Shown one piece after another: positions 9 through 54,273 of a stretch of DNA of 64,000 nucleotides. The stretch is taken from IMG/VR virus record IMGVR_UViG_3300039208_000529, positions 112,443-176,442 of that record; one strand, written 5' to 3'. The DNA comes from a virus. Taxonomy: Duplodnaviria; Heunggongvirae; Uroviricota; Caudoviricetes. The notes under the pieces were generated by a model. The model did not search any database and was not told where the DNA came from. It was given only the letters and a program-made list of their open reading frames with translations. The stretch's first letter is position 1; the number at the start of each line of letters is the position of its first letter. A program made the translations under genes and the position numbers.

Positions 9-677
9 GTGAAGTGGACGCTAGATTCAAAAGGATCTAGAATTTTAACGAACGCTTCGGTGGAAAGTGTTGCCAGGAATAGTGATGGAACATTGGTTGC
101 AAGTATTCGGAATAGAGGAACAATTCGAGCAAAGAAAATAGTGTATTGTACTAATGCCTACGTGAATACGTTGGTGCCAGAGCTGGCAAATTATATGGGT
201 AGTTTTAGGGGGCAAATGATTGCGACCGATGTGCTACCCGATAATCTTATTGAGATGTTACCTACAACAAGCTTGTCTTGTAATTACGGTTCCGAATATT
301 TTAGATTGCACGGTGGAAGATTGTTAGTTGGTGGTATGAGACATGCTATTAGGGGAAAACAAGAAGGAATTCTTGCAGATGGTGAGATAAGCAAAACCGT
401 CTACAACAGATTACGAGATTTTCTTAGTGATATTTTTCCAGCTTTGAGCAACAGCATCGAGTATACTTGGTCCGGTGTTATGTGTTCTACAAAAGATTCA
501 TTGCCCTTTGTAGGAAAATTACATAATAGACCAAATGAATACGTTATGGCCGGATTTAATGGTTATGGTTTTTCTCATGCTTTTAATGCCTCCTTGATTG
601 TAAAAGATTTGATTGTCAAAGGAAGTTCTGATTTACCTGGGACGAAGCTGTTTGACCCGGCTCGTTATTTATATTGA
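9..677 (+). CDS. FAD-dependent oxidoreductase (DAO family), C-terminal part; 5' end lies outside the window
   Basis: ORF open to the window start. C-terminal DAO-family motifs (GFNGYGFSHAF...). TGA stop at 675-677. Confidence 0.6.
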   Translation: MKWTLDSKGSRILTNASVESVARNSDGTLVASIRNRGTIRAKKIVYCTNAYVNTLVPELANYMGSFRGQMIATDVLPDNLIEMLPTTSLSCNYGSEYFRLHGGRLLVGGMRHAIRGKQEGILADGEISKTVYNRLRDFLSDIFPALSNSIEYTWSGVMCSTKDSLPFVGKLHNRPNEYVMAGFNGYGFSHAFNASLIVKDLIVKGSSDLPGTKLFDPARYLY

Positions 678-4014: not shown

Positions 4015-4461
4015 ATGGCACGAGAAGTTTTTGCGACTATTGGTTCTGGCACGTTACCTTTTACAAGAGGTATTTTACCTGCTGCTCAGCGAGGAGCTGA
4101 GCCCACTGGAGAAGGGGCTCGCGGCGGAACACAGGTAATGATTGGAAACCCTGAAGATCTTAATTCTGTTGATGTATGGGCTGTTTCTGGTGTTGCTGTT
4201 CCTGACAGCGAAGCTGTGCAGATTATGGGCCCAACATTAAATCCATTGCCAAGAATGAGAACAATTATTCTTCAAAATGTTGGAGCAAATGATGTTGCGA
4301 TTGCTCCAGATAATAACGCTAATCCAGCTGCTACAAATGGCGGGTTTATTCTTGAAACTGGTGCCGCTGCACAAACAATTACGCTTCCATTTTTGCATAA
4401 TGTAGAAATATGGGCCAGAGCCGATTCTGGTGGAGGCACCATTAATATGATCATGTACTAA
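4015..4461 (+). CDS. hypothetical structural protein, paralogue of 4492..4926
   Basis: AAGGAG RBS. Shares the motif GSGxxP...EGA...NPEDL with the next gene. Confidence 0.6.
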   Translation: MAREVFATIGSGTLPFTRGILPAAQRGAEPTGEGARGGTQVMIGNPEDLNSVDVWAVSGVAVPDSEAVQIMGPTLNPLPRMRTIILQNVGANDVAIAPDNNANPAATNGGFILETGAAAQTITLPFLHNVEIWARADSGGGTINMIMY

Positions 4462-4491
4462 GGGATTCCCCTTTGATAAAGGAGGGCCTTA

Positions 4492-4926
4492 GTGTCTAGA
4501 GAATATACAACTGTAGTAGGAAGCGGTCAGATACCGCATTTACAAGGATATCCTACACATCAATTTACTCCAGGAACCTTTCCTGTTCCATGTAAGTCTG
4601 ATCCAAGGACTCGAACTGGAGAAGGTGCTGTTGTATTAAATCCTGAAGATTTTTCTATTAATATTAGTTTAAGATCTCAGGCAATTACGGTAACTACATC
4701 AGCAACACCGTTACCAGCTAATCCGCTGGAAAATAGACGTGCTCTTGTTGTTCACAACAACAGTAATAGTACGGTTTATCTTGGACAGGCTGGAGTTACC
4801 ATTTCGAATGGACTTCCATTACTAGCAAGTGAAAAGATTGCATTTGATATCCAAGGAAATCCAAACGTTGTGGTTTATGCCGTAGGTTCGTCTTCTGTTG
4901 AAGTTAGAATAATGGAGCTTGCATAG
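4492..4926 (+). CDS. hypothetical structural protein, paralogue of 4015..4461
   Basis: GTG start with AAAGGAGGG RBS. Paralogous to the upstream gene. Confidence 0.6.
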   Translation: MSREYTTVVGSGQIPHLQGYPTHQFTPGTFPVPCKSDPRTRTGEGAVVLNPEDFSINISLRSQAITVTTSATPLPANPLENRRALVVHNNSNSTVYLGQAGVTISNGLPLLASEKIAFDIQGNPNVVVYAVGSSSVEVRIMELA

Positions 4927-5468
4927 TGGGTCTTGGTGCTGGAAATATAGTCTCTATTGGCGGAGGAACTGGTGGTACTGGTGGAAGCACAAGCGGTATT
5001 CTTGTTATTGATCCGGGTGGAAACACTGGTACGACCGTAGTTTTTGATGGGGTAAATGGGATCTCTGTAACTTCCCCTTCAACTAATTTGATATTAATTG
5101 ACGGAGCAGGAGCGTCAGGAGTTGGCGGATCTGATGGATCTGGAATCAATGATATCAATGGAGCTTTGGGTCCAAGTATAACTCTTGATGGAGCAAATGG
5201 TGCCAATGTTTTAACTAATGGCAATACCCTTACTGTTGACGTAAGTGCTTTGAGTGGACTAGTACCTACAAAATTTGCCGCATCTTTCGTTGATATTTCT
5301 AGCGGATTGTTTACTCATAACTTGGGAACAGAAGATGTAATTGTTCAAGTTAGGGACGATAGAGTTCCGCCTAGAGTTATTCAACCTGATGATATTATTA
5401 TTGAAAACACTAATCAAGTTAGTATTTTATTTAACCGTTCTCAAACTGGTAGAGCTGTAATTATTTAG
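4926..5468 (+). CDS. Gly-rich tail-fibre-like protein
   Basis: GTG start overlapping the upstream stop. GGxGG repeats. C-terminal 50-aa module shared with 5501..6163. Shares a DGVNGIxVTxPSxNxILIDG repeat with 6351..8762. Confidence 0.6.
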   Translation: MGLGAGNIVSIGGGTGGTGGSTSGILVIDPGGNTGTTVVFDGVNGISVTSPSTNLILIDGAGASGVGGSDGSGINDINGALGPSITLDGANGANVLTNGNTLTVDVSALSGLVPTKFAASFVDISSGLFTHNLGTEDVIVQVRDDRVPPRVIQPDDIIIENTNQVSILFNRSQTGRAVII

Positions 5469-5500
5469 TGTAATTTTATTATGATAAGGGGGTATCAATA

Positions 5501-6163
5501 ATGGTTAGGATCAATGGTGATTTAATCCCGACAAGTAGTGGATTGTCGCATTTAGGTGTCGATGGTGGGGCTGTAGCTAATGCCTTTGATATTGATAGCA
5601 TCTCGCCGTTTGGTCATGTGCATCTAAATAGTGGTGTATTTCATCATGCTCTTGGCCATCAATCTGGTATTATAAGATATAATGAGCCATTAGCATGTTT
5701 TGAAGTTTCAGTTGACGGCGGAGCTTCGTTTGATTGTGTCACTACTACTGCTACAGCTGGAGGAGTGACTTCGGTTGGAGTTATCGGTGGGGCTAATTTA
5801 ACTGGTGCTGTTGATTTTACTAGCACTAGTGGTTTTGTTGTAATTGGAGACACGGCAGGTGCTTCTCCAGTTACTTGGGATGTTGATGTTGCTGCTCTTT
5901 CTGGTTTATGGAATTTTCCGACTGGTGGGTTCGATAGAATTCCAACATGTTTTAACCAGTCCTTTAGTAATTCAACTTCAGTGACTGTTACTCATAATTT
6001 AAATACTTTAAATGTTATAGTTCAGGTTTATGACAACAGTAGCGATCCAGCGATTCAAATTACACCAGACAAGGTTGTAGCAACAGATGTTAACACAACA
6101 ACGATTAGTTTCAATGTATCTCAAACGGGATATGTAGTTGTTATGGCATGTGAGGACAGCTAA
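5501..6163 (+). CDS. tail-fibre-like protein
   Basis: AAGGGGG RBS. N-terminal domain paralogous to the N-terminus of 6351..8762. Confidence 0.65.
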   Translation: MVRINGDLIPTSSGLSHLGVDGGAVANAFDIDSISPFGHVHLNSGVFHHALGHQSGIIRYNEPLACFEVSVDGGASFDCVTTTATAGGVTSVGVIGGANLTGAVDFTSTSGFVVIGDTAGASPVTWDVDVAALSGLWNFPTGGFDRIPTCFNQSFSNSTSVTVTHNLNTLNVIVQVYDNSSDPAIQITPDKVVATDVNTTTISFNVSQTGYVVVMACEDS

Positions 6164-6182
6164 ATTGAGAAATATATATATA

Positions 6183-6347
6183 GTGCTAGCAGATGGCAAT
6201 ATTCGCAATGTATTCTTATCAAGAACATCTGCTGTTGAGTTTATTGGAAATGAGTGGCCCACAGCCGAACAATTGGATGATAATACATGGCATGATAATG
6301 CAACTGGTGTAATCATCGTTATAGAAGAATGGGAATTACTTAGATAA
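6183..6347 (+). CDS. small hypothetical protein between the fibre genes (possible chaperone)
   Basis: In-frame GTG or TTG start after the stop of the upstream gene. No clear RBS. Confidence 0.3.
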   Translation: MLADGNIRNVFLSRTSAVEFIGNEWPTAEQLDDNTWHDNATGVIIVIEEWELLR

Positions 6348-37478: not shown

Positions 37479-37554
37479 TGGTCGGGAATGGTAGAATCGA
37501 ACTACGTCTTGGGGCTCCCAAGGCCCCCGTGCAAACCATTACACTTCATTCCCG
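37479..37554 (-). tRNA. tRNA-Pro (anticodon UGG)
   Basis: 7-bp acceptor CGGGAAT/ATTCCCG, anticodon arm GGGGC-CUUGGGA-GCCCC, T-loop TTCGATT, CCA encoded. D arm irregular. Confidence 0.6.
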
Positions 37555-51683: not shown

Positions 51684-51711
51684 TTGACGATCAGAGGATT
51701 AGGTGTAGTAT
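51684..51711 (+). promoter_or_regulatory. sigma70-like promoter (TTGACG-16-TAGTAT)
   Basis: Hexamers read directly; located in the ORF-free divergent region. Confidence 0.45.
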
Positions 51712-51719
51712 AGAGGCAC

Positions 51720-51911
51720 ACGAACGAAAGAACGTGGGTTTGAAAAGTAGGAAGATGGAGTGCGGGACTAGCATCTCGCTGCAAAAAGATTGCCCCAACC
51801 GGATTGCTACTCCGGACCAAAGAGTACCAGCGGGCCAGAGCTGAGGAAAATGGTGAGTAAAGAGATCACCGCCGACCTTCGGAACTCTTGGGGCAATCAC
51901 TCGTTTTTTTT
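51720..51911 (+). ncRNA. candidate structured sRNA of about 190 nt
   Basis: Downstream of the 51684 promoter. 9-bp long-range stem GATTGCCCC (51788-96)/GGGGCAATC (51890-98) enclosing local hairpins, followed by T8 at 51904-51911. Confidence 0.35.
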
Positions 51912-51912
51912 C

Positions 51913-51940
51913 TTGACATCTTGGAACAACGTGCTATTAT
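51913..51940 (+). promoter_or_regulatory. near-consensus sigma70 promoter (TTGACA-16-TATTAT) preceded by a T-tract
   Basis: -35 at 51913-51918, -10 at 51935-51940. Drives the tRNA-like gene and the downstream structured RNA. Confidence 0.6.
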
Positions 51941-51991
51941 AGCATTACCTTCGGCGGGTCCGAGGGCATCTTTGACAATAAGGGAACACAT

Positions 51992-52065
51992 GACCCTGTA
52001 GTTTAATGGAGAACATCGGCGTTAATCTGCCGACGGCATAGGTTTGAATCCTGTCGGGGTCGCCA
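51992..52065 (+). ncRNA. atypical tRNA-like gene with an 8-nt anticodon loop (GUUAAUCU), 3-bp D stem and short variable loop
   Basis: 7-bp acceptor GACCCTG/CGGGGTC, anticodon stem TCGGC/GCCGA, T arm ATAGG-TTTGAAT-CCTGT, CCA encoded. 71 nt plus CCA. Confidence 0.45.
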
Positions 52066-53030
52066 TGACTCGATCGTCTAACTTAATAGGACACTTCCCA
52101 GCACGGGAAGAAATAGTGGAGAATGACCATTTCGAGTCACCAGAATACGTCCCTGTCACTGGGACGTTAAACCTTGTGCTTTTTTCTAGCCGGGCCGGGC
52201 ACTCTTCGGAGTGATAGGTGGAAGCTGGCTGATTGTTGGACGGTACCTACTGGAGGGCAATCACTAGGTCAGTGAGATGATGGACGGGTGGTGACACACT
52301 CTAAGTTATCGAGTAACTGGAGGTAAGAGCTTGTATGTCGCTACAAGAATACTGCCAAAGGAAGAGTGGATTTCTTCATTTATCAGAACAACGGTTGGGA
52401 AAGAACTTTATTGTAAAAAGTATCTTGGGAAAATGGCTGAAAAGCCATAAAATGGAACTATGTGAAGCAGAAGCGTCTAATCTTGTTTCCGAAAGGAAAT
52501 GAGGGTCCCGCGAGGGGTATTGCGGAGATTATCCCAAGTAATCAAAGTGATACGTGCTATTGAGAAGAGGTTGATCGCCTTGTTCAAGAAAACACAGAAT
52601 GTTTTGCATATTACTGGCCTGCTGTTGGGTGCCGCGAGGTAACGACAGGGATGAAGCTAGTGAAGGGATTAATACCCCCGTTCACAGACACCTAACCATG
52701 TATAACGTCACGTACTTATCGGTGGTCACTAGCAAAAAGGGTTAGATCTTGTGATAGCCTGAATCAAGCACTCACCGGAAAACCGAGTGAGAGGCTGTTT
52801 TAGCATCGGCACGAATGGCGGACAGCAGGTAATCATGGTGCAAAGAGATTACCATTTATGCGTCGGACGTATCCTGATCGATCTATTAGGATAGGAGTAA
52901 GTGGAAACCTTACCTGACGCACCATACAAAACGGGGGCTGCGGCCCGCGTGGATAGCCCGGCAAAGGGTGGTCCACGAAGGCGTGAAATCCTTAGAAATT
53001 AAAACGCAGATGATTAACAAAGGAATAAAA
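52066..53030 (+). ncRNA. large non-coding structured RNA candidate of about 950 nt (GOLLD/ROOL-like or degenerate group I intron-like). No ORF of 60 aa or more on either strand.
   Basis: Many short GC stems capped by tetraloops: UUCG at 52200-52213, GAAA at 52486-52499, GCGA at 52507-52516 and 52632-52639. Perfect hairpins at 52147-52167 and 52828-52853. Confidence 0.45.
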
Positions 53031-53711: not shown

Positions 53712-54182
53712 TTAAGATTTCACTAGATGTTCAATTGCATGACAGTTTGGACATAGTATTTCTAAATTTGACAACTTGTTATTTTTGTGGTTATGATCTA
53801 TATGATGCACCTGTAGTATTTTTTTATATTTATTGTAGTTACATCTATTACATTTATTTGGAAGCTTACTCCACGCTAAAGCACGATATCCTGTACCATA
53901 GTGATTAGGTTGAATGGCTTTTATTCCACCGATGCGTTGAGCCTGATCTTTATGTTGTCGGCAACAAAAGAATAAACCGCTTTTTGAATTACGCTGTTTG
54001 CTGCGGTTAAGATAAAACGGTTTCTTACACTGAGCACATTTAACATTGGGTACAGGATCTCGTTTACGGAATCTATTTGAACAAGAAATGGAACAAAACC
54101 GACCGTTGCCTCGATTGACTTCTTTCAACGATGCTTTAAATAGTTGGTGACAATACTCACATAAGCGATTTGTCGTTTTCAT
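53712..54182 (-). CDS. HNH homing endonuclease
   Basis: HHIDHNHKNN...LEILCPNCH motif. Lone minus-strand gene between tRNAs. Confidence 0.8.
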   Translation of the reverse strand: MKTTNRLCEYCHQLFKASLKEVNRGNGRFCSISCSNRFRKRDPVPNVKCAQCKKPFYLNRSKQRNSKSGLFFCCRQHKDQAQRIGGIKAIQPNHYGTGYRALAWSKLPNKCNRCNYNKYKKILQVHHIDHNHKNNKLSNLEILCPNCHAIEHLVKS

Positions 54183-54197
54183 TATATAAATATCTCC

Positions 54198-54273
54198 GGG
54201 GGTATAGTGCTAATTGGTAACACACGGCCCTTGCAAGGCCGAATACGGGGATCATAACCCCGTGCCTCCACCA
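54198..54273 (+). tRNA. tRNA-Ala (anticodon UGC) with a non-canonical T-loop (ATCATAA)
   Basis: Acceptor GGGGGTA/TGCCTCC, anticodon arm CGGCC-CUUGCAA-GGCCG, CCA encoded. Confidence 0.6.

Follow-up and report, generated by a model that had tools for sequence, protein, structure and literature searches.

A tRNA-like gene with an aberrant anticodon loop and its tandem cloverleaf partner in a Caudoviricetes genome: possible non-decoding tRNA mimics

Two long-standing questions are why tRNA genes occur in phages and what role the tRNA-like stable RNAs of phage tRNA clusters have; species 1 and 2 of phage T4 are still unexplained. Here we ask what a tRNA-shaped phage gene may be for when its anticodon loop does not suit decoding. 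The gene, called TL1 below, lies at 51992-52065 on the + strand of a 64,000-nucleotide stretch (the window) of a Caudoviricetes genome, which is positions 112,443 to 176,442 of the IMG/VR record IMGVR_UViG_3300039208_000529. A sequence-only reading had described it as a tRNA-like gene with an anticodon loop of eight nucleotides (nt), placed behind a consensus promoter, and had pointed to +1 frameshift suppression. Our analysis gives an unexpected result, namely that TL1 has a tandem partner, a second cloverleaf called TL2, and that this partner has a conserved family with variable anticodon loops; both are new here. The locus makes a simple testable case: one strong promoter precedes two tRNA-shaped predicted RNAs that end in CCA, and neither RNA seems able to decode normally.

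The first step is to establish whether TL1 is a tRNA-derived gene. It reads GACCCTG TA GTTT AATGGA GAAC A TCGGC GTTAATCT GCCGA CGGC ATAGG TTTGAAT CCTGT CGGGGTC G CCA, with the following parts (bp, base pairs).

51992-52065, + strand: TL1, tRNA-like gene (Rfam, ARAGORN, minimum-energy fold)
51992-51998 and 52055-52061, + strand: acceptor stem GACCCTG/CGGGGTC, 7 bp including one T.G
52001-52014, + strand: D arm, stem GTTT/GAAC of 4 bp, three of them Watson-Crick plus U13.G22
52016-52020 and 52029-52033, + strand: anticodon stem TCGGC/GCCGA, perfect 5 bp
52021-52028, + strand: anticodon loop GTTAATCT, 8 nt, read from the sequence
52034-52037, + strand: variable loop CGGC, 4 nt
52038-52054, + strand: T arm ATAGG-TTTGAAT-CCTGT, read from the sequence
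52062, and 52063-52065, + strand: discriminator G, and encoded CCA, read from the sequence

Rfam places 51992-52062 in the tRNA family RF00005 at 52.2 bits (gathering score 29; E 2.5e-8 for the whole window), aligned as a full-length cloverleaf over model positions 1-71. ARAGORN, run with its transfer-messenger RNA (tmRNA) mode as had been proposed, reports 51992-52065 as 'tRNA-???', elsewhere labelled tRNA-?(Leu|Ile)(aa), that is, a tRNA whose anticodon it leaves undetermined, and it calls no tmRNA anywhere in the window. The four helices are all paired, and the cloverleaf is the minimum-energy fold. The bases for tertiary contacts are present (U8, A14, G18, G19, G53, T54, T55, A58 and C61), with the exception of position 56, which is U and not C. 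The 7-bp acceptor, the T arm, the encoded CCA and the 4-nt variable loop are as the sequence-only reading had given them, while the D stem, counted there as 3 bp, has 4 when U13.G22 is included. A scan of both strands of the window for acceptor helices of 7 bp with N-CCA directly after them finds 25 sites, of which nine fold as cloverleaves: eight Rfam tRNAs, TL1 among them, and TL2; the other 16 sites give no cloverleaf. Between 51400 and 53700, the Rfam families other than tRNA (including GOLLD, ROOL, Y RNA and tmRNA) give no match at E<=5. An assembly error as the origin of the odd loop is excluded by two independent Logan assemblies, SRR4039775 and SRR4039776, which are 100% identical over the TL1 region, although the study they come from may be the one that gave the source contig; the loop also contains no homopolymer. 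By its predicted structure, TL1 is a genuine tRNA-derived gene, with a body of the Asp/Asn/Glu class and an intact elbow. It shares with the canonical elongator tRNA (RF00005) the helices of 7/4/5/5 bp, the 4-nt variable loop, the discriminator with CCA and, as for the real tRNAs of this phage, a sigma-70 promoter of its own, but it differs in U56 and in an anticodon loop of 8 (or 6) nt.

Can this loop decode? The perfect 5-bp stem encloses GUUAAUCU (8 nt) or, when the first G and the last U of the loop pair, UUAAUC (6 nt). The open form folds at -23.5 and the closed form at -23.8 kcal/mol, with a probability of 0.54 for the G.U pair, and ARAGORN draws the 6-nt version; the perfect stem around eight nucleotides described earlier thus stands, while its 8-nt loop shares the arm with an isoenergetic closed form. 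In the register that keeps U33, the loop presents UAA or the quadruplet UAAU, just as had been proposed, and position 37 is U or C. Registers with a purine at 37 lose U33, and none combines the two. In tRNAs position 37 is a purine, usually a modified A for codons starting with U, and TL1 lacks the canonical combination of a 7-nt loop, U33 and purine 37. Of the six distinct single-base deletions of the loop, all leave a pyrimidine at 37 and none restores a canonical loop, which means that TL1 does not derive from a canonical tRNA by a single inserted base. The case in which homologues would carry a 7-nt loop and this copy a single inserted nucleotide likewise found no such homologue in our searches. 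We infer that the TL1 loop fits standard decoding rules poorly and that normal decoding is probably lacking. Within the window, no antisense target for the loop was found either.

Two decoding explanations have to be weighed against these properties. In the first, TL1 would be a natural +1 frameshift suppressor or quadruplet decoder (for example UAAU reading AUUA) serving a frameshifted phage gene. TL1 resembles such tRNAs in a possible 8-membered loop on a tRNA-like body; eight nucleotides, the second of them U, fit into the loop of its perfect stem, its promoter is strong and its body intact, and engineered and mutant tRNAs with 8-nt loops do shift frame (PMC9094753, PMC7803779). The classical suppressors of the sufD, SufA6, SufB2 and SufJ type, however, are canonical isoacceptors with one inserted base and keep the purine next to the anticodon (PMC7803779, PMC4238358), whereas TL1 has a pyrimidine at 37, no restoring deletion and a loop that is closed to 6 nt about half of the time. 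Natural tRNAs with non-standard loops are very rare, those listed coming from yeast mitochondria, from a phage ('tRNAs in a phage') and from glass-sponge mitochondria, and none is known to mediate frameshifting (Atkins et al. 2016, PMC5009743); TL1 is like them in its extra loop base, and no sequence relationship was found. The cluster M mycobacteriophage Bongo, which we guessed to be the phage meant there, was not confirmed, all of its loops being of 7 nt by ARAGORN. No target gene for a frameshift was identified (no systematic split-gene search was made), and the standard code gives tightly packed open reading frames (ORFs). In addition, no homologue of TL1 with a 7- or 8-nt loop was found, and TL2 and the other odd-loop elements of the clade, with unrelated loops of 5-9 nt, cannot all be frameshifters. 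The earlier proposal of frameshift suppression therefore finds no support here and appears highly improbable.

In the second, TL1 would be an expanded-loop triplet decoder, in which G32-U33 is followed by U34-A35-A36 reading UUA (and UUG), with the extra base on the 3' side of the anticodon. U33 is then in place, the ARAGORN label '?(Leu|Ile)' agrees, and a natural mitochondrial tRNA with an 8-nt loop exists that is not known to frameshift (PMC5009743). The canonical tRNAs of the window match favoured A-ending codons (AGA, GGA, GCA, CCA and AUA); UUA makes up 23% of the Leu codons and has no canonical tRNA(UAA) in the window, although the genome has about 110-177 kb, of which the window covers 64 kb, and such a tRNA-Leu may lie elsewhere. 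The relatives L002/L003 and L026 (contigs compared here carry L numbers) do have a tRNA(UAA). Nevertheless, position 37 would be U against the purine rule, the G.U closure competes with the open loop, and by the identity rules of E. coli the G73 and the short variable arm would be unfit for leucine. We consider this decoder quite unlikely; should TL1 prove to decode, it would count among the rare natural tRNAs with an expanded loop.

The tandem partner of TL1 bears directly on the question. The RNA downstream of TL1, which had been noted as structured, begins with a second cloverleaf.

52066, + strand: single U spacer between the CCA of TL1 and G1 of TL2, which is also the -1 nucleotide of TL2
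52067-52142, + strand: TL2, cloverleaf tRNA-like gene starting one nucleotide after the CCA of TL1; anticodon loop AGCAC

TL2 has a 7-bp acceptor GACTCGA/TCGAGTC followed by TC, a 4-bp D stem GTCT/GGAC with the loop AACTTAATA (no GG), a 6-bp anticodon stem CTTCCC/GGGAAG around a 5-nt loop, a 4-nt variable loop AAAT, a 5-bp T stem AGTGG/CCATT with a 7-nt loop AGAATGA, a discriminator A and an encoded CCA. In each of three folding contexts its fold of minimum energy is a perfect cloverleaf, and it is the only site in the window with a cloverleaf and CCA that is not in Rfam. ARAGORN makes no call for it in any mode and Rfam gives no match at E<=5, because its D loop is without GG and its T loop without TTC. 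A 7-bp hairpin, ACGTCCC-TGTCACT-GGGACGT, lies directly after TL2 (52147-52167, + strand); its loop TGTCACT equals the tRNA-Asp anticodon-loop heptamer CUGUCAC shifted by one, a resemblance which may be chance.

A family of such genes was sought on related phage contigs with the scan for an acceptor helix, N-CCA and a cloverleaf, and with the covariance models R1 and R2. On the whole, the family is present in at least eight related phage contigs, uncalled by standard finders, and has a body of the type ...CCTG TC GTCT AAC.TAATA GGAC A, a variable loop A[A/G]AT, a T loop TGAAATA and the end ...CGGG N CCA. Besides TL2, the members and their anticodon loops are as follows.

L022 18034: anticodon loop ATCGG
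L022 17823: anticodon loop GTTTCA
L002 17633: anticodon loop ATTTAC
L025 19758: anticodon loop ATTACG
L027 19710: anticodon loop TACCCA
L024 13862: anticodon loop ACCGTAC
L001 20316: anticodon loop CTTTGGG
L023 13587: anticodon loop TCTAATCCT

The anticodon loops are of 5, 5, 6, 6, 6, 6, 7, 7 and 9 nt with unrelated sequences, while the D, variable and T loops are conserved. In the family alignment 98.6% of the cloverleaf cells are paired, compared with 37-59% when the 3' partners are slid; 18 of 21 pairs have changed on both sides, and none of 500 shuffles reaches the observed values. The covariance model also found the gene at L027 19710 (73 bits), which is absent from the training set, and R2, built without any sequence of the window, puts TL2 on top at 62.8 bits, above every canonical tRNA. 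By these model scores TL2 is a member of a conserved tRNA-Glu-type family. Since the paired body covaries while the loops differ freely, selection in the family keeps the tRNA shape and not the anticodon, and decoding cannot explain a family whose loops range from 5 to 9 nt with unrelated sequences. As L015, a distant phage, combines this type of body with a canonical Glu loop, the family is an offshoot of tRNA-Glu which has kept the shape and an unusual elbow and has lost the fixed anticodon loop. As standard tRNA finders miss or mislabel such genes, they go uncounted in phage annotation.

Some further elements were seen near this family. Apparently orthologous uncalled tRNA-likes lie just upstream of tRNA-Tyr at L027 18482-18551 and L025 18431-18501, with loops of 8 nt (UACAAUCC) and 6 nt (AUAAGA), respectively. 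The uncalled tRNA-like at L002 15999-16073 has an anticodon arm, CTTCCC-AGCGG-GGGGAG, nearly identical to the CTTCCC-AGCAC-GGGAAG of TL2 on a different, Gly-like body. Normal anticodon loops with non-canonical T loops, for example ATCATAA in a tRNA-Ala, occur at 54198-54273 (+) of the window, at L001 20316 and 20391, at L002 18609 and at L004 20368, and unusual elbows are common in the phage clade.

We then consider how the two genes would be expressed, with the elements listed here.

51913-51940, + strand: sigma-70-type promoter, -35 TTGACA at 51913-51918, 16-nt spacer, extended -10 TG-TATTAT (51935-51940), 11 of 12 consensus positions plus TG
51948-51966, + strand: leader hairpin CCTTCGG-CGGGT-CCGAGGG between promoter and TL1, read from the sequence
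52335-52642, + strand: opening pair of small ORFs in the rightward unit, 55 and 47 amino acids (aa), overlapping at ATGA, with GGAGG upstream (genes called on the Logan contig L009)

TL1 begins 52 nt past the promoter end. The promoter had been called a consensus one, and this holds with the extended -10; it is not special to TL1, as the same layout of promoter then tRNA is seen at the amber-suppressor tRNA (12/12, 40561-40534), the tRNA-Tyr and the tRNA-Ile of the window. Because strong promoters directly precede several genuine tRNAs of the phage, TL1 is arranged like a tRNA gene. The minus-strand genes end at about 51462 and the plus-strand genes start at 52335, so that TL1 is located in the divergent gap between two transcription blocks and, as the small ORFs start there, TL1 and TL2 stand in the 5' part of the rightward transcription unit. 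Very probably TL1 is transcribed and processed. Host RNA polymerase would transcribe from 51913-51940 a precursor made of the leader, TL1, one U, TL2, the hairpin and the small ORFs, and RNase P would cut 5' of TL1 and 5' of TL2; the latter cut would leave the CCA of TL1 with one extra U, which exonucleases could trim. Upstream of this promoter, 51715-51906 (+) is structured (z = -2.2), between a weaker promoter at 51684-51711 and a run of eight T, and may be a small RNA.

This arrangement also fits an explanation in cis, a variant of the tRNA-derived leader or processing signal that the sequence-only reading had kept as a fallback. In it TL1 and TL2 would form a processing or stability module, recruiting RNase P to cut the early transcript and to set the 5' end of the downstream mRNA, and the freed RNA would have no role. 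The two genes are at the extreme 5' end of the rightward unit, upstream of the small ORFs; the U at -1 of both and the encoded CCA favour RNase P cleavage; and an irrelevant loop sequence would match the loop variability of the TL2 family. tRNAs are moreover interspersed with ORFs across the phage. In relatives, however, the TL2-family genes sit within tRNA clusters and not at operon heads, which means that a leader role is not conserved; the conserved non-canonical D and T loops of the family are unnecessary for RNase P cleavage alone; and one tRNA-like unit would suffice where two are present. A role confined to such processing seems very unlikely to us.

The explanation we tentatively favour is that TL1 is processed like a tRNA but may act as a non-decoding tRNA mimic. 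It is the best single explanation because the loop fails the decoding rules, the partner cannot decode, the clade maintains anticodon-less cloverleaves and the genome is rich in tRNA-end and RNA-repair functions. CCA-ended, L-shaped RNAs of about 74 and 76 nt would then engage factors that recognise the tRNA body or acceptor end, with no normal codon reading, and their most likely use would be as competitors or decoys for host tRNA-directed nucleases, toxins or tRNA-handling enzymes. Such a role in the conflict over tRNAs is speculative and is drawn by analogy with the proposal that phage tRNAs counter host anticodon nucleases (PMC10264068); if true, it would add an RNA-based layer to that phage-host conflict. 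A wider version may be imagined, in which the clade maintains several kinds of anticodon-less mimics (the TL2 family, at least one further family, and TL1) with loops free or driven to vary, as decoys absorbing tRNA-targeting nucleases or toxins. The C-GUUAA of TL1 and the UGUCAC of the hairpin at 52147-52167 would mimic the Y-G-U loops of the Tyr/His/Asn/Asp group, the targets of colicin-E5-type enzymes, and the strong early promoter would supply these RNAs at the start of infection. We regard this wider version as doubtful.

Several observations weigh against a maintained mimic in the case of TL1 itself. Its folding-energy z-score, taken alone, is unremarkable (-1.2), and when a longer stretch is folded, the leader can form pairs with its anticodon arm instead. 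R2 scores TL1 at 47.4 bits, a value like those of canonical Asp/Glu tRNAs (46.6-52.4); as it does not outscore them, TL1 is not placed in the TL2 family. Like the family members, it has an anticodon loop of non-canonical length or sequence on a well-paired arm, and an encoded CCA, but it lacks their signature loops (having TA-GTTT, AATGGA, CGGC and TTTGAAT), of which TL2 has the D arm and the variable loop. Unlike the family, TL1 keeps a canonical D loop with GG and a near-canonical T loop, and could thus be a recently damaged ordinary tRNA. In addition, TL1 is a singleton in all collections searched, and selection on it is not demonstrable because there is no orthologue. What TL1 does share with several family members is the acceptor CCTG...CGGG, the U6.G67 wobble and G73, besides its physical adjacency to TL2.

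The searches behind the last point were as follows. By pattern scans and blastn, no orthologue of TL1 was found in viral contigs, metagenomes, bacterial and archaeal genomes, annotated phages or E. coli. Among the viral contigs, the exact pattern of anticodon arm and T arm gives no match, and neither do the pattern of D arm plus T loop and that of the loops only. The 18-mer of the anticodon arm has one match (L007), inside coding DNA and taken as chance, and the loop 8-mer with a generic T arm matches an ordinary tRNA-Asn (L019) and two non-tRNA sites. A loop-free purine/pyrimidine pattern matches nothing in the bacterial and archaeal genomes; what it matches in the metagenomes is an ordinary tRNA-Gly (L010) together with a defective element resembling a suppressor (L011). 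The latter, at 531-592 (-), scores 41 bits in Rfam; it carries the amber-suppressor heptamer CUCUAAA on an anticodon stem of 4 bp that lacks position 39, its acceptor has only 4 bp, and its T loop is TTTGAA, as in TL1. By blastn, the annotated phage records give T-arm fragments at most. In all related loci fetched, the arm with three mismatches allowed and a hairpin scan give nothing in a tRNA context, and none of the 13 loci scanned has TL1 at the equivalent place; for the neighbouring 170-aa ORF, intended as an anchor, no homologues were found. The nearest phages have a NAMPT identity of 55-67%, with 67% as the maximum.

These results are what the other fallback of the sequence-only reading, a pseudo-tRNA, would lead one to expect, and both fallbacks are still viable. 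TL1 would then be a decaying or recently inactivated tRNA paralogue, transcribed through the operon promoter and having no function of its own. Besides the singleton status and the lack of TL1 at the equivalent site in relatives, the anticodon loop is the only aberrant part, which is what a recent disabling mutation would leave. A canonical tRNA-Asp of L005, a related phage of the same sample, has an identical anticodon stem, and tRNA-Asn has GUUAA at positions 34-38, which together suggest a rearranged arm of Asp/Asn type. On the ancestry of TL1, R2 groups it with Asp/Glu-type bodies, and over its length it is most like the phage's own tRNA-Arg(UCU), with 51 of 66 positions outside the loop. 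Nevertheless, no single-nucleotide change leads to or from a canonical loop, so several events in the loop would be needed, yet the helices and tertiary bases are intact; useless DNA is quickly deleted by phage genomes; and TL2, a member of a selection-maintained family of anticodon-less cloverleaves, indicates that such genes are not junk in this clade. A pseudo-tRNA is possible, if somewhat unlikely.

If TL1 and TL2 are mimics, are there known RNAs of this kind? The closest in layout are rnaC and rnaD (species 1 and 2) of T4, small stable RNAs in a phage tRNA cluster which lie 1 and 6 nt from a tRNA gene, rnaC carrying a tRNA-like T arm. They differ from TL1 in having 119-139 nt, no simple cloverleaf, no encoded CCA and no sequence similarity; they are ruled out as homologues, as the folds differ and blastn gives no match, and share the layout only. 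Another non-decoding tRNA mimic is the bacterial Y RNA (YrlA), which has a tRNA-like domain and associates with Ro60. TL1 differs from it in being a complete 74-nt cloverleaf and not a module of a longer RNA; Y RNA is among the families giving no Rfam match around TL1 and TL2, and no TROVE/Ro60 protein is found among 30 window proteins scanned. In the related contig L026, a cloverleaf with CCA and a T-arm-like GCTGGTTCGAGCCCAGC (4396-4473) lies immediately upstream of a Ro60/TROVE-like gene (4763-6283) and is a candidate Y-RNA-like partner.

The locus belongs to a large phage. The window forms part of a 110-kb JGI metagenome contig (sample 3300038492, Ga0169446_00002), and a contig of 177.5 kb encodes an identical NAMPT. 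The genes of the phage include ribonucleotide reductase, NAMPT, a CCA-adding enzyme, an RNA ligase with a second ligase-like gene, a SpoU methylase, HD_4, NUDIX and a metallophosphatase, and there are 11 Rfam-level tRNA genes, including one of amber-suppressor type. Relatives have Thg1-like and Ro60-like genes; L025 12754-13491 and L027 12565-13302 are Thg1-like (the tRNA 5'-end 3'-5' polymerase family) and lie next to NAMPT. The amber-suppressor-type tRNA(CUA) at 40450-40525 (-), with its perfect TTGACA-16-TATAAT promoter, has a weak anticodon stem with a C31.A39 mismatch; nearly all relatives have a tRNA(CUA) beside tRNA-Tyr, despite the standard-code genome. Stop-codon recoding was considered and dropped, since ORFs are densely packed under the standard code as it is, and none of the recodings is conspicuous. 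Rfam finds a tRNA-Pro(UGG)-like gene at 37479-37554 (-) with 55.9 bits, which ARAGORN misses. In L002 (19147-19235) and L005 (6257-6346), genes called tRNA-Asn(GUU) have long variable arms (89-90 nt), which is unusual for Asn. An HNH endonuclease gene at 53712-54182 (-), between tRNA-Met and tRNA-Ala, recalls the homing endonuclease segB in the tRNA cluster of T4. Upstream of the 170-aa ORF, a 330-nt gene-free stretch contains 59 nt (52793-52850, +) that are 86% identical to L004 18441-18499 and have no Rfam match, with compensatory changes in two helices: GCTGT/ACAGC against GCTAT/ATAGC, and GGTAATC/GATTACC against GGAATC/GATTCC. Finally, at the start of the window (9-677 and 674-2572, +), the profile of the ribonucleotide reductase large subunit is matched from position 204 onward only, and the start of the subunit is overlapped by an ORF of 222 aa in a different frame, which suggests that the subunit may be split or have an N-terminal part in a separate gene.

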